A stretch of 64,000 nt of DNA from a virus. Positions within the stretch are counted from its first letter, which is position 1, and each line of letters opens with the position of its first letter. Both the position numbers and the translations under genes were made by a program. The notes beneath the pieces were generated by a model, which was given only the letters and a program-made list of their open reading frames with translations, had not been told where the DNA came from and ran no database searches. Below, one piece after another: positions 2,077 to 13,044 of the stretch. Where the stretch lies: UHGV virus genome UHGV-0171787, one strand, 5' to 3'.

Positions 2077-3618
2077 ATGTCATTAGATAAACAAATTTAT
2101 GAAGCTCTAACTGGTAACAACCTTAGTGTAGATGAAAAGAAAGCACTATTGAATATGTTGAAAGAGCGTGACCAATGGAGGAAGTATAATAGGATTTTGT
2201 CTTTCAAGGCGTATGACTTCCAAAAGAAATTTTATGCAGCAGGATTGAAGCATCGCTTTAGATTCTTGTGTGCAGCGAACCGTGTTGGTAAATCTTATAG
2301 TGAGGCATACGAGTTTGCTTGTCATGTCACAGGTCGCTACCCAACTTGGTGGACAGGATATAAATTTAAAAGACCTATCTTAGCATGGGCAGTTGGTATT
2401 ACAGGGGATTCCACAAGGAAAGTATTGCAAAAGGAATTGTTTGGTACACCTATCGGAAAGGATACAAATTTATTAGGGACAGGTGTCATTCCTCGTGATG
2501 CTATCGTCATTGATACGATAGAACGAGATGGTAACAAACTTCAAATCGTACAAATCAAACATCAAAATGAGAGAGGAGAGTTTGACGGTTTAAGTACATT
2601 AGAATTCCGTTCAACCCAACAGGGTGAACATACATTGATGGGTGCAACAGTTGACTACATTTGGTTAGACGAAGAAGATCCATACGAGTCTATGGCTATA
2701 TTCGCACAGTGTGTCACACGTACACTCACAACTAAAGGTCTAGTTACAATTACAGCTACACCAGAGAACGGTTTAACTGAACTGGTAGATAAATTTATGA
2801 AAGGTGAAGGAGATGAGAACACGGGTTCTCTATATTTCCAGAATGCTTCTTGGTGGGATGCTCATGCAGACCTAGGTGGACATATCACTGACCAAGATAT
2901 AAAAGATATGACTGAAGGTATTCCAGCGTGGCAATTAGAGATGCGTTCAAAAGGTATGCCATTGTTAGGAAGTGGTTTGATTTATGATGTATCGGATGAC
3001 ACAATTAAATGTGAACCATTCGAAATTCCTGATACGTGGAAACGTGTCTGTGCAATTGATATTGGTATTGATCACCCAACTGCTGCTGTTTGGACAGCTT
3101 ACGACGCAAACACGGATACTATCTATGTTTACGACTCATATAAAGAAGGTGGCTTTACTCCAGTGTATCATGCTCCAGCTATTAATGGTCGTGGTCAGTG
3201 GATTCCTGTCATCCTACCGCATGACGCGGACAATATTGAGAAAGGTAGTGGTTCATCTGTTGCTCAATTCTATAAGAATGCAGGAGTTAATGTACAGAGT
3301 GATACCTTCTACAACAAAATTGGAATGGATGGTAAAAAGAACTTCTTTGTAGAACCGGGAATCACAGATATCCGAGAAAGAATGATGAGTGGACGCTTTA
3401 AAATCTTTAACACAGCCGCTAACGCTAAGCTATTCGAAGAGAAAGCTAGATATCACCGTAAGGTTGGTAAGATTATTAAAGAACATGATGACTTAATGGA
3501 TGCAATGCGCTATTCAGCGTGCTCTGTTACACATCGTGGTCGCTCTAAGCATGATGTTAGCTACGGAAGCGCTTCTTTGTATGAGGCAAACGTAAGCAGA
3601 TGGAATCAGAGTTACTAA
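2077..3618 (+). CDS. terL: Terminase large subunit
   Basis: 513 aa; N-terminal ATPase P-loop-like LCAANRVGKSYSE and acidic nuclease-region motifs; sits upstream of portal. Confidence 0.85.
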   Translation: MSLDKQIYEALTGNNLSVDEKKALLNMLKERDQWRKYNRILSFKAYDFQKKFYAAGLKHRFRFLCAANRVGKSYSEAYEFACHVTGRYPTWWTGYKFKRPILAWAVGITGDSTRKVLQKELFGTPIGKDTNLLGTGVIPRDAIVIDTIERDGNKLQIVQIKHQNERGEFDGLSTLEFRSTQQGEHTLMGATVDYIWLDEEDPYESMAIFAQCVTRTLTTKGLVTITATPENGLTELVDKFMKGEGDENTGSLYFQNASWWDAHADLGGHITDQDIKDMTEGIPAWQLEMRSKGMPLLGSGLIYDVSDDTIKCEPFEIPDTWKRVCAIDIGIDHPTAAVWTAYDANTDTIYVYDSYKEGGFTPVYHAPAINGRGQWIPVILPHDADNIEKGSGSSVAQFYKNAGVNVQSDTFYNKIGMDGKKNFFVEPGITDIRERMMSGRFKIFNTAANAKLFEEKARYHRKVGKIIKEHDDLMDAMRYSACSVTHRGRSKHDVSYGSASLYEANVSRWNQSY

Positions 3619-3623
3619 AGTAA

Positions 3624-3655
3624 GGGGGAGGTTTATCCTCCCTTCTTTTATTTAA
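3624..3655 (+). terminator. Terminator-like hairpin between terminase and portal
   Basis: ggggagg-tttat-cctccc followed by ttcttttattt. Confidence 0.35.
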
Positions 3656-3679
3656 GCTATCAACCGAGGGAGAGAATCG

Positions 3680-5923
3680 ATGGCTAAGCAAAAATATAGT
3701 GAAGAGGTGTTGGACGAGTTACGTGTTGACCTTCAACGTCGTTTTAATTATGCTCAAGGCTACGTAGACACAGCTGTTAAGGGCTATGCTCGTGAAGCTT
3801 GGGAATATTTCTATGGTAACTTACCTGCACCAGTAACTGCTGGCAGCTCTAGTTGGGTAGATCGTACTGTTTGGGAATCTGTTAACGGTACATTGCAAGA
3901 TATTATTAACGTATTCTGTTCTGGTGACGAAGCGGTTACTTTCGTAGCTGACAACCAACAGGATTCTGATGCTGCTGATGTAGCAACTAAACTAGTTAAC
4001 CAAATTCTTCTGCGTGATAATCCGGGATATAATATTATCTCTTCTGCTGCACAAGAATGTCTGGTTACTCGTAACTCTTTTATCAAATATTATTGGGATG
4101 AGCAAACTTCTACTCAAACTGAAGAGGCTGAAGGTGTACCACCGGAAGCATTGGCTGCATATGTTCAGGGATTAGAAGCTGGTGGACTCAAGAATCTGGA
4201 AATCTTCACTGAAGAAAATGAAGATGGTACAGTAGATGTTAAAGTTACTTACGAACAAACTGTTAAACGTGTGAAAGTTGAATATGTTCCTTCAGAGCAA
4301 ATCTTTGTTGATGAACATGCTACCTCTTTTGCAGATGCACAATACTTCTGTCATCGTGTACGTCGTTCTAAAGAAGATCTGGTTGCTATGGGCTTCCCTA
4401 AAGATGAGATTGAAGCATTCAACGACTGGACAGATACGATGGATACCACTCAATCTACAGTTGCTTGGTCTCGTACTGACTGGCGTCAGGATATTGATGC
4501 TGATATTGGCACAGATACCGAAGATATTGCTTCTATGGTTTGGGTTTATGAGCACTACATTCGTACAGGTGTTCTAGATAAGAATAAAGAGTCTAAACTC
4601 TATCAGGTTATTCAAGCTGGTGAGCATATCCTTCACACTGAAGAAGTAACTCACATTCCGTTTGTAACCTTCTGCCCATATCCTATTCCGGGTTCCTTCT
4701 ATGGTCAATCGGTCTATGACATTACGAAAGATATTCAAGATTTACGTACCGCGTTAGTTCGTGGTTATATCGATAACGTCAACAATGCTAACTATGGTCG
4801 ATACAAAGCTCTTGTTGGTGCATATGATCGTCGCTCTCTGCTTGATAACCGTCCCGGTGGAGTGGTTGAAATGGAACGTCAGGACGCTATTGACCTGTTC
4901 CCATACCATAACCTACCTCAAGGTATTGATGGCCTCCTAGGTATGTCTGAGGAGCTTAAAGAGACACGTACAGGTGTAACCAAACTAGGTATGGGTATCA
5001 ACCCTGATGTGTTTAAGAATGATAACGCTTATGCAACCGTAGGCTTGATGATGAATGCTGCACAGAACCGTCTCCGTATGGTATGTCGTAACATTGCTCA
5101 CAATGGTATGGTTGAATTGATGCGTGGTATTTACAGCCTTATCAGAGAAAATGGTGAAGTTCCTATCGAGGTACAAACCCCTCGTGGTATGGTTCAGGTT
5201 AATCCGAAACAATTACCAGCTCGTCACAATCTTCAAGTTGTTGTAGCTATCTCCCCTAATGAGAAAGCAGAACGTGCACAGAAACTGATTAGCTTGAAAC
5301 AGCTGATTGCAGCAGATGCACAGTTAGCACCTCTCTTTGGTTTGGAGCAAGACCGTTACATGACTGCACAGATCTTTGAGTTGATGGGTATTAAAGATAC
5401 ACATAAATACCTTCTGCCTCTGGAACAATATCAGCCTCCAGAACCTTCTCCGATGGAAATCCTCCAGCTCGAGATGACTAAAGCACAGGTTGAGAACGTA
5501 CAGGCTTCTTCTCAGAAGATGATTGCTGATGCATTCGACCAACGTGAACGTACTACATTCGAACAGCAGAAAGCTGCGGATGAATTAAGTCTGCGTCAGG
5601 AAGAGTTGCAGTTCAAGCAAGAAAATGCAGCAGATGCAATGACTCTGGAAAACCGTAAAGAAGATAACAATGCTACTCTGGAACAAGCTAAGCACAAGTT
5701 AGCTCTTATGCAACAGCAGGTCCGTCAGTATGAATCTGTACTAAAAGAGTTGCAGATGGTTATGTCTCATCAGGTTGACCAAGAGAAGCTTAATGAACAA
5801 TCACGCATTCAAAACAAGACTTTGGAACTCCAAAAGAAAGAAGCTAATGTAACTAAGAAAGAGCAACAAACTTCTCTCAAAGATTCACGGATTCAAGGCA
5901 AACGTCTTGGAAGTAAAAAGTAA
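3680..5923 (+). CDS. Portal protein with C-terminal coiled-coil/charged tail
   Basis: 747 aa directly downstream of terL; C-terminal 200 aa Gln/Glu/Lys-rich; assignment by size and synteny. Confidence 0.7.
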   Translation: MAKQKYSEEVLDELRVDLQRRFNYAQGYVDTAVKGYAREAWEYFYGNLPAPVTAGSSSWVDRTVWESVNGTLQDIINVFCSGDEAVTFVADNQQDSDAADVATKLVNQILLRDNPGYNIISSAAQECLVTRNSFIKYYWDEQTSTQTEEAEGVPPEALAAYVQGLEAGGLKNLEIFTEENEDGTVDVKVTYEQTVKRVKVEYVPSEQIFVDEHATSFADAQYFCHRVRRSKEDLVAMGFPKDEIEAFNDWTDTMDTTQSTVAWSRTDWRQDIDADIGTDTEDIASMVWVYEHYIRTGVLDKNKESKLYQVIQAGEHILHTEEVTHIPFVTFCPYPIPGSFYGQSVYDITKDIQDLRTALVRGYIDNVNNANYGRYKALVGAYDRRSLLDNRPGGVVEMERQDAIDLFPYHNLPQGIDGLLGMSEELKETRTGVTKLGMGINPDVFKNDNAYATVGLMMNAAQNRLRMVCRNIAHNGMVELMRGIYSLIRENGEVPIEVQTPRGMVQVNPKQLPARHNLQVVVAISPNEKAERAQKLISLKQLIAADAQLAPLFGLEQDRYMTAQIFELMGIKDTHKYLLPLEQYQPPEPSPMEILQLEMTKAQVENVQASSQKMIADAFDQRERTTFEQQKAADELSLRQEELQFKQENAADAMTLENRKEDNNATLEQAKHKLALMQQQVRQYESVLKELQMVMSHQVDQEKLNEQSRIQNKTLELQKKEANVTKKEQQTSLKDSRIQGKRLGSKK

Positions 5924-5932
5924 GGACGTCGA

Positions 5933-6169
5933 ATGAACATTAGGCATCAATTCAATAAAGAGCACGCCGCCGCTTTGGCGGCTCTCAATCTTAACGGCAG
6001 TCTTGACGCAGCATTAGAGGCATTGAAAGAAAGACTCATGACCGAGATAGTTCAAACTGAACCTCATGAGAATAAGAAACGCGAAGATTGTTATCAAAAG
6101 TATAAAATGGTGGGTAGCTTAAAAGAGGTCATAAAAGCTGCTATCAATAGTGCAGGAGATGTTTCATAA
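5933..6169 (+). CDS. Hypothetical protein
   Basis: ORF track, 78 aa; stop overlaps start of next gene (TAATG). Confidence 0.45.
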   Translation: MNIRHQFNKEHAAALAALNLNGSLDAALEALKERLMTEIVQTEPHENKKREDCYQKYKMVGSLKEVIKAAINSAGDVS

Positions 6170-7245
6170 TGCCACAAGATAATTATATTGACCCGAACGA
6201 TTTTAAATCTTTCCTCCAACTGGATGACCTGAAAGGTTCTTTCAAAGAAGAACTCGGTCGATTAGAATCTGAACAAGAGCCAGAAGTGGACATTGACGAT
6301 GAGTTCCCGGAAAAAGACGGTGACGATTTCGACTTTGATACCGACCTTCTCGGTGAAAGCGATGAGCTTAAGTTCGAAGATGAAGATGGTTGGGAAGATC
6401 ATGATGAGGAAGGCGAAGTCGAAGAAGATGAAGATGAATCCTCTGAAGCAGAAGAGCAAGAGGAAGAAGATTCAAGTGATGCAGGGTATGAAGATGATTC
6501 TGCTGACGGTGAAGGTGAAGTCTTTGATGTAGACTACGAAACCGTTATCACCCTTCCTGATGGACGTGAGATGACTATTGAAGAACTTTCTAATGGCTAT
6601 CTTACTGGTGCTGATATGACAGAACGAGAATCAACTCTTCAGCGTCATATGGAAGCATTTGAGGAACGTGTAGTAGGTTTGAAGGATGTATTAGAATTAG
6701 CGTCTTTAGAAGCAGACCGAGTAATTGAAGATTACAATGGTTTTGATTGGGACAAGCTTGCAGTAGAAGATCCTCAAGCATATGTTGAAAACAAACGTTT
6801 CCTAGAGAAGTACACAGCTCGTCGTAACCAGCTTGAACAGGCTCAAGTCCGTATTAAGCAGGAAGCAGCAGCTAAAGAGCAGGAAGCTTTCCAAGCCAAG
6901 AGTGTTGAGTGCGTTAATATTCTGAAACGTGAGATTCCAAATTGGGATGAAAACTTATATCAAAACTTAATGCAATATGCAATTGACTTAGGTGCTACTG
7001 AAGAAGAAATATTGAAGGAAAACCGTCCGTCTATTTTCCTAGCTCTCCACAAAGCATACCAATTTGATAAAGGTAAGCAGCAGGTGATGGCTAAGATTAA
7101 ACGTCCCGGTGCTCCACGCAAGGTTGTGAAGTCTGATGCTGCAAAGTCTCGTACTTCCAATAAGCCCGACAACGCTAAGGTTGCCAAGGCATTCGCAGAG
7201 GGTCGCGTTAGTCACGAAGACGCATTCAAATTCCTCGTAGATTAA
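6169..7245 (+). CDS. Scaffolding protein candidate
   Basis: 358 aa, extremely acidic N-terminal region (Asp/Glu runs) and helical C-terminal half, positioned between portal and capsid genes. Confidence 0.6.
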   Translation: MPQDNYIDPNDFKSFLQLDDLKGSFKEELGRLESEQEPEVDIDDEFPEKDGDDFDFDTDLLGESDELKFEDEDGWEDHDEEGEVEEDEDESSEAEEQEEEDSSDAGYEDDSADGEGEVFDVDYETVITLPDGREMTIEELSNGYLTGADMTERESTLQRHMEAFEERVVGLKDVLELASLEADRVIEDYNGFDWDKLAVEDPQAYVENKRFLEKYTARRNQLEQAQVRIKQEAAAKEQEAFQAKSVECVNILKREIPNWDENLYQNLMQYAIDLGATEEEILKENRPSIFLALHKAYQFDKGKQQVMAKIKRPGAPRKVVKSDAAKSRTSNKPDNAKVAKAFAEGRVSHEDAFKFLVD

Positions 7246-7285
7246 TCGACAAATTAATTATTAATAGTATAGGAGCTAATATAAC

Positions 7286-8347
7286 ATGGCTAGTCCAACT
7301 TTATTTGTATCGTATGACCAGAATGGTAAAAAACTTTCTTTTGCTAACTGGATTTCTGTTCTGTCCCCTCAGGATACCCCGTTCGTATCTATGACCGGTA
7401 AAGAGTCTATCAACCAGACTATCTTTAGCTGGCAGACCGATGCACTGGCAAGCGTTGACGGTAATAACGCACACGTCGAAGGCTCTCGTGCTGAAGACGG
7501 CGAAATGAAACCGACTGTTATCAAATCTAACGTTACTCAGATTCTGCGTAAGGTTGTTCGTGTTTCTGATACTGCTAACACCACCGCTAACTACGGTCGT
7601 GGTCGTGAACTGATGTATCAGCTGGAGAAGAAAGGTAAAGAGATCAAGCGTGACCTCGAGAAAATCCTTCTGTCCGGTCAGGCTCGTACCGACGTTCTGG
7701 CTGACCAGTACCTGACTAACTCTGCAACTGATCCTGCTGTTGTTGGTCTGAATGACACCCATACAGCTCGTAAGACTGGTGCATTCCAGTTCCTGTGTGC
7801 TCACGGTGGTCTGGCTGGTGGTGTTGTTGACAAGACCAAGAATGGTCCTGCTGACCCGGATACTGGTGCAATCACTGTTAAAGTTGCACAGAATGCTTCT
7901 AACCCGACCACTAACATTGGTTTCGACGAAGCTGATATCTTTGATATGACTCTGCAACTGTATACCGCTGGTTCTGAAGCAGATATCATCATGATTAACC
8001 CGGCTCATGCTAAGATCTTCGCTGGTCTGCAAGAAAATACTCAGGGTTCACGTAAGCGTATCTTTGAGAACACCAAGCAGTTCATCTACGAAGTTAACAG
8101 CATCACTGACCCGCTGGGCCAGAGCTACAAAATCATCGTTAACCGTTGGATGCCTACCGATGCAGTTTACTTCTTCCGTAGCGCTGACTGGACTCAGATG
8201 GTTCTGCGTGCTCCGAAACGTACTGAACTGGCTAAAGATGGTTCTTATGAGAAATGGATGATTGAAATGGAAGTTGGTCTGCGTCACCGCAACCCGTATG
8301 CTTCCGGCGTTCTGTTCACTGCTGCGGGAAAGGTAGCGGCGGCGTAA
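7286..8347 (+). CDS. Major capsid protein
   Basis: 353 aa, located after scaffold; size and position typical; strong codon bias consistent with high expression. Confidence 0.7.
   Translation: MASPTLFVSYDQNGKKLSFANWISVLSPQDTPFVSMTGKESINQTIFSWQTDALASVDGNNAHVEGSRAEDGEMKPTVIKSNVTQILRKVVRVSDTANTTANYGRGRELMYQLEKKGKEIKRDLEKILLSGQARTDVLADQYLTNSATDPAVVGLNDTHTARKTGAFQFLCAHGGLAGGVVDKTKNGPADPDTGAITVKVAQNASNPTTNIGFDEADIFDMTLQLYTAGSEADIIMINPAHAKIFAGLQENTQGSRKRIFENTKQFIYEVNSITDPLGQSYKIIVNRWMPTDAVYFFRSADWTQMVLRAPKRTELAKDGSYEKWMIEMEVGLRHRNPYASGVLFTAAGKVAAA
8326..8332 (+). other. Candidate -1 ribosomal frameshift slippery heptamer G_GGA_AAG
   Basis: X_XXY_YYZ heptamer in the capsid reading frame 5 codons before its stop; the -1 frame is open from 8266 through the Ig-like ORF. 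Confidence 0.45.
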
Positions 8348-8349
8348 CA

Positions 8350-9450
8350 GTAGATTCCGTAACTGTTAGTCCTTCGTCGGTTGCAAGCCTTCCGACGGGG
8401 GCTACTCAGCAGTTTACAGCTACAGCAGAAATGAGTGACGGCTCCACAAGCACAACTGGATTTAATTGGTCCGTTGAAGGCGGTGGGGCTATTTCTGTTT
8501 CTGGGCTATACACTGCACCGAGTGCGTCGCAAGAAACCCCAGCAATTATTACGGCAACGAAGTCATCCAAGAAAGGGACGGCTACTGTTAATTCTATCTA
8601 CGAACCAGCGACTATTGTATCAAAAGGTCCTATTACTGGTAAGATTGGTGGCAGCACTACAGCATTCACCACAATGTTTACAGCAACCAACTCAGCATTC
8701 TCTGATTATGAGTTTGAAATCACTCCTCCGTCAGCAGGTTCTTTTAACCTGTCGGGTGTATTTGGTTTAGATGACAATGCATCTGGAACAGTGACTGTAA
8801 AAGCAACGCATAAAACTCAAACCTCAGTTACTGCAACAGGGACAATCAGTGGTGTAATTCCTAAAGCTACTATCACAGGTAAGTCTCTTACCGGTAAGGT
8901 TGGTGGTGATGTGATTCCTTTTACTGACATGTTTACTAGTAACAAACCAGCATCGGAATTTACTTACGCACTGACTCCTGATGGTGAAGTTGGTTCAATC
9001 AACACTACTACTGGTGCACTGACTTTAGCACTGGCTCCTACAGATGAACTTATGAGTGTTAAAGCAACCCATAAAACACAAACTTCTGTAACAGCTACTG
9101 CTACAATTACAGCAACACCGAAGTTGACAGGTCTTGTCCTTTCTTCTGTGACTAACACCACGGTTACTGGAAGCCCTGCGGTTCCGGCTGAATCTGATAC
9201 AATTACTATCACTGATTCAGGTGTTGCAGGTGTTGCTCGTGTAGATGGGGTTCCTCAAGGAGCTTTAACTGGAGCTTTGGCCTATGATGTAGAAGGTACA
9301 GATTCTTCATTGATGACAGTGGATTTAACCAGCAATGTGTTAACTATCACCCTGTCAGCACCGATTACCAGTGAAGATACAAAAATTACCATCCGAACTA
9401 ATCCGGGTTCTGATGTTTTCCGTACTTATATTGTTAAATCTGGTGCATAA
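8350..9450 (+). CDS. Ig-like (Big_2) domain capsid-decoration region, likely C-terminal extension of the capsid protein
   Basis: Big_2-like sequence (VTVSPSSVASLPTGATQQFTATAEMSDGST...) begins upstream of the track ATG at 8431, in the -1 frame relative to the capsid gene; no SD before 8431; internal repeats VKATHKTQTSVTAT. Confidence 0.55.
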   Translation, partial: VDSVTVSPSSVASLPTGATQQFTATAEMSDGSTSTTGFNWSVEGGGAISVSGLYTAPSASQETPAIITATKSSKKGTATVNSIYEPATIVSKGPITGKIGGSTTAFTTMFTATNSAFSDYEFEITPPSAGSFNLSGVFGLDDNASGTVTVKATHKTQTSVTATGTISGVIPKATITGKSLTGKVGGDVIPFTDMFTSNKPASEFTYALTPDGEVGSINTTTGALTLALAPTDELMSVKATHKTQTSVTATATITATPKLTGLVLSSVTNTTVTGSPAVPAESDTITITDSGVAGVARVDGVPQGALTGALAYDVEGTDSSLMTVDLTSNVLTITLSAPITSEDTKITIRTNPGSDVFRTYIVKSGA

Positions 9451-9455
9451 GAATA

Positions 9456-9486
9456 AAGCCGCCTTCGGGTGGCTTTTCTTGTTTTA
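9456..9486 (+). terminator. Rho-independent terminator
   Basis: aagccgcc-ttcg-ggtggctt hairpin followed by tttcttgtttt. Confidence 0.55.
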
Positions 9487-9507
9487 AGACCTATACAAGT
9501 CAGTGTG

Positions 9508-9516
9508 TAATGTATA
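9508..9516 (+). promoter_or_regulatory. Candidate phage promoter element TAATGTATA
   Basis: Same 9-mer also at 24244-24252; both sit 34-39 nt upstream of a plus-strand gene start. Confidence 0.4.
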
Positions 9517-9549
9517 TTCTTTGTCTACATATAACAAGGAGGACAACCT

Positions 9550-10302
9550 ATGGCAATGCCAGATGTGGCCTATCCGATTAACACGTATGGCTGGCTTAAG
9601 AAAGCTGTTGCCTTGTGGGCCGATCGGGACGATGATGAATTTGTCAATCAAATTCCAAACTTTATTAACTTTGCAGAGAAAGAGATCTATCGTAACTTAC
9701 GTATTCCTCCTCTGGAAAAAGAAGTGTATTTAGATATCAAAGATGGAGTGGCTTATATTCCTCCTGATTACTTAGAAGCTCAATGGATGATGAGAGCCAA
9801 AGATGGTGCAATCTTCCAAGTAACATCTCCTGAAGAGATTAGCTATCGTAGACAGCATGGAACAATTAATCCATCTCACTGGAATAACCAACCTGTTAAC
9901 TTTGCTCGTTTCGGGAGTCGTTTCATTTTCTACCCTAGTATTGAAGCAGATACTCCATACTACCCTGATGATGGAAGCCCTTTGATTCCAGCAGAAAACT
10001 CAGTAATTCTTAGTTATTATGCAGATCCACCGGAATTCCACGAAGATACAGATACCAGCGCTATTCTTACTATAGCACCAGAACTTCTTCTGTATTTTAC
10101 CCTACGTCATGCTTGTCTGTTTGTTCAAGATGATAACGGTGTTCAGAAATGGTCAGCATTAGGAAAAGCTATCCTTGATGAAATGGTAGAGCAGAACAAG
10201 AAACAAGAGTACTCAGGTTCACCTATCGCAATTCCGAATAACATGACTCGACTTCAGAGCAGCTTGCCTGATATTTATGGTATTCGCACTTCACGTGTAT
10301 AA
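9550..10302 (+). CDS. Virion structural protein (possible head-tail adaptor)
   Basis: 250 aa with AAGGAGG SD; position between capsid and tail fiber genes. Confidence 0.45.
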   Translation: MAMPDVAYPINTYGWLKKAVALWADRDDDEFVNQIPNFINFAEKEIYRNLRIPPLEKEVYLDIKDGVAYIPPDYLEAQWMMRAKDGAIFQVTSPEEISYRRQHGTINPSHWNNQPVNFARFGSRFIFYPSIEADTPYYPDDGSPLIPAENSVILSYYADPPEFHEDTDTSAILTIAPELLLYFTLRHACLFVQDDNGVQKWSALGKAILDEMVEQNKKQEYSGSPIAIPNNMTRLQSSLPDIYGIRTSRV

Positions 10303-10311
10303 GGAGAAAAC

Positions 10312-13044
10312 ATGATTAGTTACAACAATTCAGCACCTAAAGCGGTAAATAATGTAGGGCAATTCGGTGCTACAGAAGGGTCCATTGGTGCATATAAATC
10401 AGCAGCTGAGTATGCGTCTGATGCTAAATACTGGGCACTTCTATCCCAAACTAAATACTCTTCAGTAGAGGATATTCTGGCTGAAGTAGAACGCCTGTAT
10501 GCTCAAGGTTATCTACTGGAAGAAGATATTAAACAGCTTAAGAGTGACTTTGAGTCACAAGAGCAAGTGCTCTTAGGCTTGATTCAATCCACAGGAACTG
10601 CAATTGACAACACTAATGCAGCAACTGAACTTTCAAAAGAGGCAACTCAAAATGTTCTAGCACAACTTGACATTATCTCTAATATGACAGTTCAAACAAC
10701 GCTACTCCCTCCCGGAAGTTTAGCAACTGGATCTTATGACAACTTAACTGGAGAGTTTTCTTTTGGTATTCCAGAAGGTAAACCGGGCCGTGATGGGACA
10801 GATGGTACGATTTCTGATATCGGCAGTGTTCCTATTGGTACCCCTGTTACTGATGACTTCGGTTTCTATGTAGATCAGGATGATGGTGGTTTATACCGAG
10901 CCAATATGTCTGATATTGCCAACCTAGTGCCTTCTATCCGATCTATCTCTATCAACGGCGGTGCAGAGCAGACGGGTACTGTATCTTTTAACTCTGTATC
11001 TAGTTTTAACACTCGTACCGGAGATGTTGTATCACAAACTGGTGATTATGAAGTAAGTCAAATCACAGGGGCGGCTGCTAGTGGTGATAATTCAGATATT
11101 ACATCCCTTTCTGGCCTTACTACAGCAATATCTGTTTCACAGGGTGGTACAGGGGCTACATCTGCTGAGAATGCTCGAGTAAATCTTGGACTCGGTTCAG
11201 TGTCTGTGGAAAATGTAACCCCTTTAACTAAAGGAGGTACAGGAGCTACTACACCTTCTGGTGCACGTAGTAATCTTGGCTTAGGTTTAGTTTCAACTGA
11301 ATCTATCGTGCCAATCACTAAAGGTGGTACAGGGGCTACATCTGCTGAGAATGCTCGATTGGCATTGGTTGCAGCTAAAAGCGGTGCTAACTCAGATATT
11401 ACATCAATGACAAATAGCGTCACTTTTACCCAGCCAATATCTATTGCCGATGGGGTAAGTGCTACAAACGCTGTGAACCTCGGTCAAATTTCCTCAAATC
11501 AAGGGGCTTCTTTAATTGGTGTTAAGCAACCCTTTACAAACACAGTAGCTCGGACACAATACGACAAGAATGCGGAGATGATATCCATTCGTGACTTCCA
11601 TCAGAGCACTGACCCTGACTGGACGCTTGCGTTTAATCGTGCGTCAACAGTATCTGCACAGCAGGGGAAAATTATATTCGTACCTGCCGGTGAGTACAAA
11701 ATATCAGATTCTATCCTTCTCTATGATTCGGAAGATGTTTACAACGAGAAATATTATCAGCCACCAGGGAGCCGATTTGTCGGGGAGGGCCGCGCATCTA
11801 TTATTCGCAAGACAGCGGTAGGGACTCAGGACATTAACGCTGTTTTCTACAACAAAGGTAAGCGCGGTAATGTTGTCCGTGGACTGCGCATTCTGGATGA
11901 GACAACGGATAGTTACGGGTATTACACACCCAATACAGCTGTATACCAGGAATTTAGCGATCTGTTTATCCTGGCACAAAAATGGGGAATGTATTTTGGA
12001 GGTAATACCTTTGTTGGTGTTTCCCTCCGCGAAATCGTTGTCCAAGGTTCAAACGCTACGGGTATATATGGTGGTATTCATATCCATGGCGGGACGAGCT
12101 ACGTAGTATCTCAATGTAATGTGTTTAAAGCGAACTACTGTTCCTTTGAGTTGACTGGCTCATACTGCGAAGTGGGACCATTAGCATCTGATGATTGCAC
12201 TGGGACTCCGTATATTTTTAACGCAGGCTCGTACAGCGTTTCATCTTTAGGCTGTGAGCAGCCTTCGCGCCAGAACAGTGGAACAATTATTAAGGGAACC
12301 GGGGCTAACTTGCAGATAGACAATATACATCTGTATGACCAAACGCAGATTGCCGGTAGCTACATGTTTGACCTATCCGGCTATGCGAAAGTAAGTATTA
12401 AGCAACTAATCACCAGCTCAACCACTACTTTCAATGGTGCGATGGCCCGTTTAAACAACGGTGCTAAGTTAGAAATCGTGTACAGCAATAAGGTTGAAAC
12501 GTCGTGGCCTCAAAGGAATTCTTATGACACAACAACAACAACTTTCGCTACGTTAGGAAGTCTTGGTGGTGTGGCAACCATCCCGACATTCGGAACTACT
12601 ATGTGCCGAGATATAGCTCTACCAAATCCGAACCAGGAGAATGGTCCCTACTATCGTATTGTTGGTGGTCAATATGGAACTCGTGGTTGTATTGGAACTA
12701 TATTCACTCTACGTAGTGGTACTGGTATGACTCCTATCGCAGGTGCTTATAATCTTAACACAGTAAGCAGTAACACTGCTACGAACGCAAAATTAGTTAA
12801 AGCTGCTCATTGCGACACTGAAGCCCTCAAAGACTATGATAAATGGTTCACTGGTACGTACGAAGGGACGTCTTATCTATTTATCCGTATGCCTATTGAA
12901 GGCGGGGATCGCAACCTCGGGACATTCTTCTCTGGTGTTGTTTTTGGACAAGATCGAAATATGTTCAAAACCTTGTTAGGGAGTGAGATCTCCGGACTAA
13001 CTGAATATTCGTCGGGTAGTATTCTTACCGCGCAGGCAACTTAA
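10312..13044 (+). CDS. Tail fiber / tailspike protein with repeated GGTGAT..NLGLG motifs
   Basis: 910 aa; three 60-aa-period repeats including an exact 36-bp DNA repeat (11143-11178 and 11323-11358); C-terminal region beta-helix-like. Confidence 0.7.
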   Translation: MISYNNSAPKAVNNVGQFGATEGSIGAYKSAAEYASDAKYWALLSQTKYSSVEDILAEVERLYAQGYLLEEDIKQLKSDFESQEQVLLGLIQSTGTAIDNTNAATELSKEATQNVLAQLDIISNMTVQTTLLPPGSLATGSYDNLTGEFSFGIPEGKPGRDGTDGTISDIGSVPIGTPVTDDFGFYVDQDDGGLYRANMSDIANLVPSIRSISINGGAEQTGTVSFNSVSSFNTRTGDVVSQTGDYEVSQITGAAASGDNSDITSLSGLTTAISVSQGGTGATSAENARVNLGLGSVSVENVTPLTKGGTGATTPSGARSNLGLGLVSTESIVPITKGGTGATSAENARLALVAAKSGANSDITSMTNSVTFTQPISIADGVSATNAVNLGQISSNQGASLIGVKQPFTNTVARTQYDKNAEMISIRDFHQSTDPDWTLAFNRASTVSAQQGKIIFVPAGEYKISDSILLYDSEDVYNEKYYQPPGSRFVGEGRASIIRKTAVGTQDINAVFYNKGKRGNVVRGLRILDETTDSYGYYTPNTAVYQEFSDLFILAQKWGMYFGGNTFVGVSLREIVVQGSNATGIYGGIHIHGGTSYVVSQCNVFKANYCSFELTGSYCEVGPLASDDCTGTPYIFNAGSYSVSSLGCEQPSRQNSGTIIKGTGANLQIDNIHLYDQTQIAGSYMFDLSGYAKVSIKQLITSSTTTFNGAMARLNNGAKLEIVYSNKVETSWPQRNSYDTTTTTFATLGSLGGVATIPTFGTTMCRDIALPNPNQENGPYYRIVGGQYGTRGCIGTIFTLRSGTGMTPIAGAYNLNTVSSNTATNAKLVKAAHCDTEALKDYDKWFTGTYEGTSYLFIRMPIEGGDRNLGTFFSGVVFGQDRNMFKTLLGSEISGLTEYSSGSILTAQAT

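Follow-up and report, generated by a model that had tools for sequence, protein, structure and literature searches.

The window examined here, a stretch of 64,000 nucleotides (nt) of viral DNA (UHGV virus genome UHGV-0171787), carries a major capsid gene whose 3′ end is overlapped in the −1 frame by a long open reading frame (ORF) for immunoglobulin (Ig)-like domains. Both frames run through a slippery heptamer, and the original prediction, made from the sequence, was that a programmed −1 ribosomal frameshift at this site fuses the capsid protein to the Ig-like region. All features of the window described below lie on the + strand. Judged by its sequence, the window belongs to a Kuravirus (phiEco32-like) podophage of Escherichia coli and represents a new species-level member of this genus. 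Its gene order from 3680 to 13044 (portal, a small ORF, scaffolding, capsid, Ig-like ORF, adaptor and tail fibre) is collinear with that of phiEco32-like podophages. The capsid-plus-extension segment is matched by 126 phage records, the top one being Escherichia phage Paul (Kuravirus) with 90% identity over the full length, and a 24-kb internal segment of the window has at most about 92% identity to any record searched.

The capsid ORF occupies 7286–8347 in what is termed the 0 frame. It encodes a protein of 353 amino acids (aa) and 38.7 kDa ending in ...FTAAGKVAAA, and the TAA stop codon at 8345–8347 terminates this short, major product. Membership in the SU10_MCP family, which has the HK97 fold, is indicated by a Pfam match (PF17236) with E=3e-77 and 260 bits against a cut-off of 24.1, covering residues 12–344; identity to the major capsid proteins of Kuraviruses is 93–99%. 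A Shine–Dalgarno sequence, AGGAG (7271–7275), can be read from the sequence 10 nt 5′ of the ATG at 7286. Both capsid products depend on this site alone for ribosome entry, and the GenBank entry of Paul lists its homologue as the ribosome-binding site of both coding sequences (CDSs).

The heptamer G_GGA_AAG is found at 8326–8332, in the capsid frame, and is separated from the TAA by only four sense codons (GTA GCG GCG GCG). It is suited to a −1 tandem tRNA slip, in which GGA-AAG would be re-read as GGG-AAA. An uninterrupted −1 frame (8266–9450) spans the heptamer; the extension proper (8332–9450) has 372 codons plus a stop and is reached only by frameshifting. Joining 7286–8332 to 8332–9450 gives a computed fusion product of 721 aa and 75.7 kDa, 36.9 kDa above the short product. 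The predicted junction is ...NPYASGVLFTAAGK followed by GSGGVTVDSVTVSPSS..., i.e. ...FTAAGK followed by GSGGVTVDSVTVSPSS..., which reads AAGK-GSGG-VTVDSVTVSP, and the predicted junction peptide is ...FTAAGKGSGGVTVDSVTVSPSSVASLPTGATQQFTATAEMSDGSTSTTGFNWSVEGGGAISVSGLYTAPSASQETPAIITATK, spanning AAGK and GSGG. The original prediction is borne out on each of these points: it had placed the end of the capsid ORF at 8347, the opening of the −1 frame at 8266 and the heptamer at 8326–8332, and had anticipated two capsid species about 36 kDa apart.

GGGAAAG itself is not enriched in the window, with six occurrences observed against 7.4 expected. The arrangement at the capsid gene is nevertheless singular. 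Both strands together contain 358 heptamers of the form XXXYYYZ, 23 of which are in frame within an ORF that is open for at least 100 codons upstream. Only the one at 8326–8332 combines this with an end of the 0 frame within at most 40 codons and a −1 frame that stays open for at least 60 codons (here 374).

The extension begins with a Gly/Ser linker, GSGG (8332–8343), whose sequence and length vary across relatives, and continues into four predicted domains. An AlphaFold2 model of the extension, based on 31 homologues, is all-β, with a mean predicted local distance difference test score (pLDDT) of 87.4 and four β-sandwich domains. Domain 1 (8350–8601; extension residues 7–90) matches the Pfam family Big_2 (PF02368) over residues 7–83 (nt 8350–8580) and profile positions 2–74 of 79, with 25.1 bits against a gathering threshold of 22.8 (E=1.7e-5). 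This match appears only when a segment of 93 aa is scanned alone. It has to be regarded as marginal, since Pfam gave no match when all 372 aa of the extension were scanned together. Domain 2 (8611–8859; residues 94–176; pLDDT about 95) and domain 3 (8872–9117; residues 181–262) are both modelled as Ig-like β-sandwiches and are repeat copies A and B of a tandemly duplicated module of about 85 aa. The duplication (8611–9117) emerged from direct pairwise comparison (43% identity, E=5e-12), while a self-BLAST of the extension gave the identity match only; both copies terminate in the motif VKATHKTQTSVTAT. Domain 2 also matches phrog_13745, annotated as ‘Ig domain containing protein’. The C-terminal β-sandwich, domain 4 (9133–9441; residues 268–370), is modelled with pLDDT values of 67–93. 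A Foldseek search of the Protein Data Bank with the whole chain retrieved tandem Ig-like or cadherin-like arrays. Among them are S-layer proteins, protocadherins, Sidekick Ig1-4, Ig-like domains from the nozzle of SU10 and a Big_2 segment of LigA (8gyr_A; template modelling (TM) score 0.59 on the target).

The description of the extension as a Big_2-type domain thus holds, marginally, for the first domain, and is refined to four tandem Ig-like domains of which, by Pfam, only the first is Big_2. The claim that this domain follows a Gly-Ser linker and begins upstream of the first −1 frame ATG (8431–8433) was also correct. Met-8431 is residue 34 of the extension and lies inside domain 1, behind three predicted β-strands (residues 7–14, 19–21 and 25–34). 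Initiation at this codon would delete these strands and so yield a broken first domain.

The capsid transcription unit ends directly 3′ of the extension stop codon in an intrinsic terminator with a 9-bp stem and a T-run (9455–9486); the records of Paul, SU10 and Privateer have an annotated terminator at the corresponding position. No promoter-like site was found on the + strand between the capsid and extension ORFs.

Conservation of the two-frame arrangement

Comparisons were made with capsid loci from 26 related phage genomes and viral contigs, 15 of which belong to the Kuravirus/Nieuwekanaalvirus group. In every one of these 15, G_GGA_AAG is present in frame, 9–15 nt 5′ of the capsid stop codon, and an in-frame copy is also found in Proteus phage Privateer. 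The −1 frame remains open for a further 173–541 codons in the Kuravirus/Nieuwekanaalvirus loci, with SU10 as the sole exception. The codons that flank the heptamer vary, giving 0-frame tails of VAAA, VAA, AAA, AVAA, VVAA, VEAA, AGA or LDPQQ and −1 frame linkers of GSGG, GGG, GGS, GGSG or VGSA; the heptamer itself is invariant.

Start codons in the −1 frame show no such constancy. Among the Kuravirus-like loci none is conserved and none is preceded by a Shine–Dalgarno sequence; the first is an ATG at +105 in the clade of the window and a GTG at +30 in phiEco32, and in ECBP2 there is none before +144.

The pattern of substitutions changes frame across the heptamer. Upstream (8296–8325), variable columns occur only at third positions of the 0 frame (5/10 versus 0/10 and 0/10 at the other two). 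In the segment between the 0-frame stop codon and the first ATG (8348–8430), which is beyond the reach of any start codon, the variable sites counted by −1 frame codon position are 6/27, 5/28 and 17/28, and hence show a third-position bias. These sequence comparisons indicate that the extension is under purifying selection. Coding-type evolution, together with contiguity via a slippery heptamer and the lack of a start codon of its own, constitutes the signature of programmed frameshifting.

It is therefore very probable that the long capsid–Ig fusion is made by a −1 slip at 8326–8332, as had been predicted for a capsid-KGSGG-Ig-like product. This interpretation is supported by the invariance of the heptamer, the absence of a conserved start codon, the frame-switching periodicity and the start of domain 1 upstream of Met-8431, and also by the annotation of phage Paul in GenBank and by published work on SU10, Privateer and YF01 (see below). 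In the proposed mechanism, ribosomes would initiate at the capsid ATG (7286), and most would stop at the TAA at 8345, yielding the 38.7-kDa major capsid protein. A minority would slip at G_GGA_AAG, with the P-site tRNA-Gly moving from GGA to GGG and the A-site tRNA-Lys from AAG to AAA, and would then read the −1 frame to 9450. The resulting 75.7-kDa minor capsid protein would consist of a complete HK97-fold body (residues 1–349), the Gly/Ser linker and four tandem Ig-like β-sandwich domains. As the capsid body is intact, the long form is expected to co-assemble into the prolate shell, with the Ig-like array on the outside. From lambda G-GT, which has the identical heptamer, we infer a slip frequency of a few percent; the copy number of the long form per virion is inferred as well. 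The extension may serve in weak adhesion to glycans or surfaces, as has been proposed for phage Ig-like domains.

The capsid body (7286–8332) is 93–99% identical genus-wide, and the extension (8333–9450 in the window) is 173–541 aa long. The extension DNA is 74–84% identical to that of the nearest relatives, with modules inserted or deleted, and thus forms a hypervariable modular tail on a conserved gene.

Evidence against frameshifting and competing explanations

Several points weigh on the other side. No sequence resembling a Shine–Dalgarno element is visible in the 20 nt 5′ of the heptamer. The nearest downstream hairpin (hairpin 1, discussed below) has a folding energy of −8.2 kcal/mol and z=−0.2, which is not above shuffled sequence, and overall no convincing stimulatory element was found either in the 20 nt upstream or among the hairpins downstream. 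Many GenBank records list homologues of the extension as separate ‘Ig domain containing protein’ genes. In SU10, cryo-electron microscopy (cryo-EM) revealed a uniform shell without decoration density, and no long band was seen on sodium dodecyl sulfate–polyacrylamide gel electrophoresis (SDS–PAGE) (PMC9965538). Lastly, the long product has been shown in virions of relatives (phiEco32 and Privateer, by mass spectrometry or SDS–PAGE), while the present phage is known from its sequence alone, and the protein evidence for phiEco32 is known second-hand, via later papers.

Downstream structures typically act on the slipping ribosome at a spacing of 5–9 nt. Hairpin 1 (8341–8371), which has a 10-bp stem with one bulge and the core UAACAGU/ACUGUUA, lies 8 nt 3′ of the heptamer and is a weak candidate stimulator. 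Its core is invariant across relatives, so that covariation is uninformative. It adjoins hairpin 2 (8372–8400), in which the pairing of cgtcgg (8374–8379) with ccgacg (8391–8396) extends to a 9-bp stem (−12.7 kcal/mol, z=−2.0). In relatives, one G-C pair of hairpin 2 is replaced by U-A, with three distinct sequences represented, and another G-C pair by U-G; these changes amount to only two or three independent events. The original prediction had noted this as a possible hairpin. It is indeed present, and kept in relatives, but it begins 39 nt 3′ of the heptamer and was rejected as a classical stimulator on account of this distance of about 40 nt. The two-hairpin fold is more stable in phiEco32 and ECBP2 (z=−2.6).

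Other pairings were also considered. A possible hairpin at 8316–8342 (CUGCUGC/GUAGCGG; −10.8 kcal/mol, z=−1.5) would hold the heptamer in a 7-nt loop and corresponds to a stem-loop (CUGCUGC/GCGGCGG) proposed in the 2014 SU10 paper (PMC4281155). It was discarded as a stimulator because its 5′ arm precedes the heptamer, so that a slipping ribosome would cover this arm or have passed it already. RNAalifold favours an alternative long-range pairing of ACUGUUAG with a downstream segment, which is mutually exclusive with hairpin 1. The downstream hairpins of more distant relatives are present, though not significant against shuffles.

In phage lambda, frameshifting at G/GT does not require a strong stimulatory structure. 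The lambda site is the identical G_GGA_AAG, read by E. coli ribosomes, and its slip rate is about 3.5% as quoted in the YF01 paper (PMC9965538), so a stimulator may be unneeded at the capsid gene as well. The lambda genes differ in that they encode tail chaperones, and their product is no virion decoration.

There is an outside chance that the abutting hairpins (8341–8400) form an unusually placed, conserved stimulator or attenuator, which would control how much long product is made relative to the short one, and that, at the same time, rapid turnover of the Ig-like modules (173–541 aa, against a capsid body that is 93–99% identical) adapts these phages to host surface or niche. Neither the hairpin role nor adaptation by module turnover has been described mechanistically for Kuraviruses.

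The SU10 sequence (KM044272) bears directly on the structural data for that phage. The heptamer is retained, but a 1-nt insertion 26 nt 3′ of it (alignment A1, column 66) leaves only 13 codons of −1 frame (GKGGGVTVDTVYC) before a stop. The Ig-like ORF of SU10 (4536–4934) thereby falls in the capsid 0 frame, behind TAA and TAG. The insertion (within 4391–4440) generates a near-perfect palindrome, AACAGTAGACA-C-TGTCTACTGTT, and could be either a real loss-of-extension mutation or a sequencing error. The same sequence basis for the absence of a long form in SU10 was given by the YF01 authors (PMC9965538) and is confirmed here. Since the closed −1 frame makes the long form impossible, SU10 provides no evidence against the mechanism in phages with an intact frame.

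In principle, the Ig-like protein could be the product of an independent gene starting at ATG 8431 (339 aa, 34.2 kDa) that decorates the capsid non-covalently, with the heptamer being incidental. An ATG-initiated ORF of 339 aa does exist and its start is the one used by gene callers; besides the separate database entries already mentioned, the SU10 structure paper views gp10 as a possible separate minor capsid protein. ATG 8431 is the first ATG, GTG or TTG in the −1 frame after the heptamer (105 nt from the start of the heptamer), but, as the original prediction had noted, it lacks a Shine–Dalgarno sequence: none is present in the preceding 18 nt (tttacagctacagcagaa). Moreover, the phiEco32, ECBP2 and ManiMatter lineages have a Lys codon (AAA or AAG) in its place, and annotated starts vary between records. 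The 83 nt 5′ of the ATG (8348–8430) evolve as −1 frame coding sequence, the three β-strands of domain 1 would be lost, and a free Ig-like array would have no evident capsid-binding module. ATG 8431 was accordingly rejected as a real start, and an independent gene is very unlikely. Still less credence can be given to the view that the change of frame is a sequencing-indel artefact, or that the downstream ORF is a remnant no longer expressed. SU10 shows that single-base indels in this region can abolish the extension, and the distant relatives SE131 and APT65 encode capsid–Ig fusions as one continuous ORF. Against this, 15 independently sequenced genomes share the identical two-frame arrangement with its heptamer, purifying selection acts on the extension, which is modelled as four confident domains, and the short form is required as the bulk shell protein.

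A different doubt concerns the fate of the product: frameshifting might occur, yet the long protein might be no stable decoration of the mature head, because it acts in assembly only, is lost, or is present in too few copies. The uniform shell and missing long band of SU10 would fit this, but SU10 cannot make the long form at all. In addition, the long form was found by mass spectrometry in purified Privateer virions and has been reported for phiEco32, and flexible domains at low occupancy may be averaged out in symmetric reconstructions. This explanation is improbable, if somewhat less so than an independent gene. Two further routes to a second product were rejected: transcriptional slippage, as the A-run is just 3 nt long, and termination–reinitiation, as there is no −1 frame start codon near the 0-frame stop. 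A programmed −1 frameshift at 8326–8332, with the long form as a minor capsid protein, is thus preferred.

Known systems and more distant capsid loci

Frameshifting at this site is not new; it has already been published and annotated for the genus Kuravirus. The joined CDS of phage Paul carries the GenBank note ‘Frameshift at GGGAAAG; Frameshift in PhiEco32 major capsid protein product as well (PMID: 18294652)’. According to the 2014 genome paper on SU10 (PMC4281155), ribosomes slip at GGGAAAG, and the head protein is thereby fused to the Ig-like domain ‘as in phage phiEco32’. A 2021 paper (PMC7881722) reports that Privateer has the same signal and gives two capsid bands, and that mass spectrometry detected its long form in virions; its authors add that the frameshifted product had also been seen in phiEco32 and SU10. 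Both isoforms and the heptamer are likewise described in the 2023 paper on YF01 (PMC9965538), together with the way the extension varies in length within the group.

The Kuravirus frameshift (phiEco32 gp11/gp12, Paul CPT_Paul_009/010 and YF01 gp8) agrees with that of the window in genus, capsid family and the location of GGGAAAG at homologous codons, and likewise in the −1 frame, the Gly-rich linker, the first Big_2 domain and the terminator that follows. Differences lie in the length and module content of the extension, which has 372 aa and four domains in the window, as opposed to about 175 aa in phiEco32 and about 541 aa in Paul and YF01. With four Ig-like modules, the present phage stands between phiEco32 (about two) and Paul and YF01 (about six). 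Its extension DNA is 84% identical to that of Paul, with a gap. What the window adds is a four-module length variant of a form of frameshift-based capsid decoration that is already known, and no new question arises from it. The locus should be annotated as a joined CDS, 7286..8332 + 8332..9450. Most GenBank records for the group, like any automatic gene call on the window, divide the long isoform between a ‘major head protein’ and a truncated ‘Ig domain containing protein’ whose start falls within a domain.

Proteus phage Privateer (Grimontviridae) shares with the window an SU10_MCP-type capsid protein (57% identical) and GGGAAAG. In Privateer, unlike the window, the heptamer directly abuts the stop codon (G_GGA_AAG_TAA), and the −1 extension is shorter (169 aa) and divergent.

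The original prediction had likened the locus to the 10A/10B pair of T7, which is also known from T3. In these podophages, too, ribosomes shift to the −1 frame towards the 3′ end of the major capsid gene and so provide a minor, C-terminally extended species that co-assembles with the major form. The capsid family and slippery sequence are different, however, and there is no array of four Ig-like domains. The frameshift extension of T7 is short, about 50 aa. No T7-like phages are among the tblastn matches listed for the capsid protein, and in Pfam the only family matched was PF17236 (SU10_MCP); neither search set the protein side by side with T7 gene 10. What the two systems share is a mechanism rather than a common family.

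Phage capsid or tail proteins can carry Big_2-type and other Ig-like domains at their C-termini, often attached via programmed frameshifts (Fraser et al. 2006, J Mol Biol 359:496). Such domains have been proposed to adhere weakly to carbohydrates on surfaces; T4 Hoc and the model of phage adherence to mucus may be compared. T4 Hoc differs from the product predicted here in being a separate decoration protein, without fusion by frameshifting.

Other arrangements are seen in more distant capsid loci. Salmonella phage SE131 (1485–4261), Aeromonas phage APT65 (551–4745) and the viral contig L019 (27–4407) contain two to four tandem capsid paralogues. One such paralogue has a long in-frame C-terminal extension; in SE131 this is gp028, a protein of 586 aa annotated as ‘Ig domain containing protein’. 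In these three genomes, duplication and in-frame fusion appear to replace frameshifting as the source of a minor, decorated capsid subunit.

A non-canonical heptamer, G_GUA_AAG, occurs at the homologous position in loci L014–L016 (about 4410–4930) and in Aeromonas phage LAh_8 (L007/L017, about 3410–3690). The −1 frame at these loci is open for 168 or 89 codons, has no nearby ATG and encodes a sequence resembling Big_2, ...GKGVSAPTGVTVSPAT...; the LAh_8 annotation makes this ORF a gene of its own, a ‘putative tail protein’. L014–L016 also have a GC-rich hairpin, AGCGCCC-CUAC-GGGCGU, 5–6 nt downstream, with −12.7 kcal/mol and a z of only −1.2. Both L014–L016 and LAh_8 may frameshift on this weaker site by a single slip on A_AAG. 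At 4397–4531 of the 125-kb viral contig L019, the fourth capsid paralogue ends with A_AAA_AAG, a dnaX-type heptamer, 3 nt before its stop codon, and the −1 extension there comprises 41 codons.

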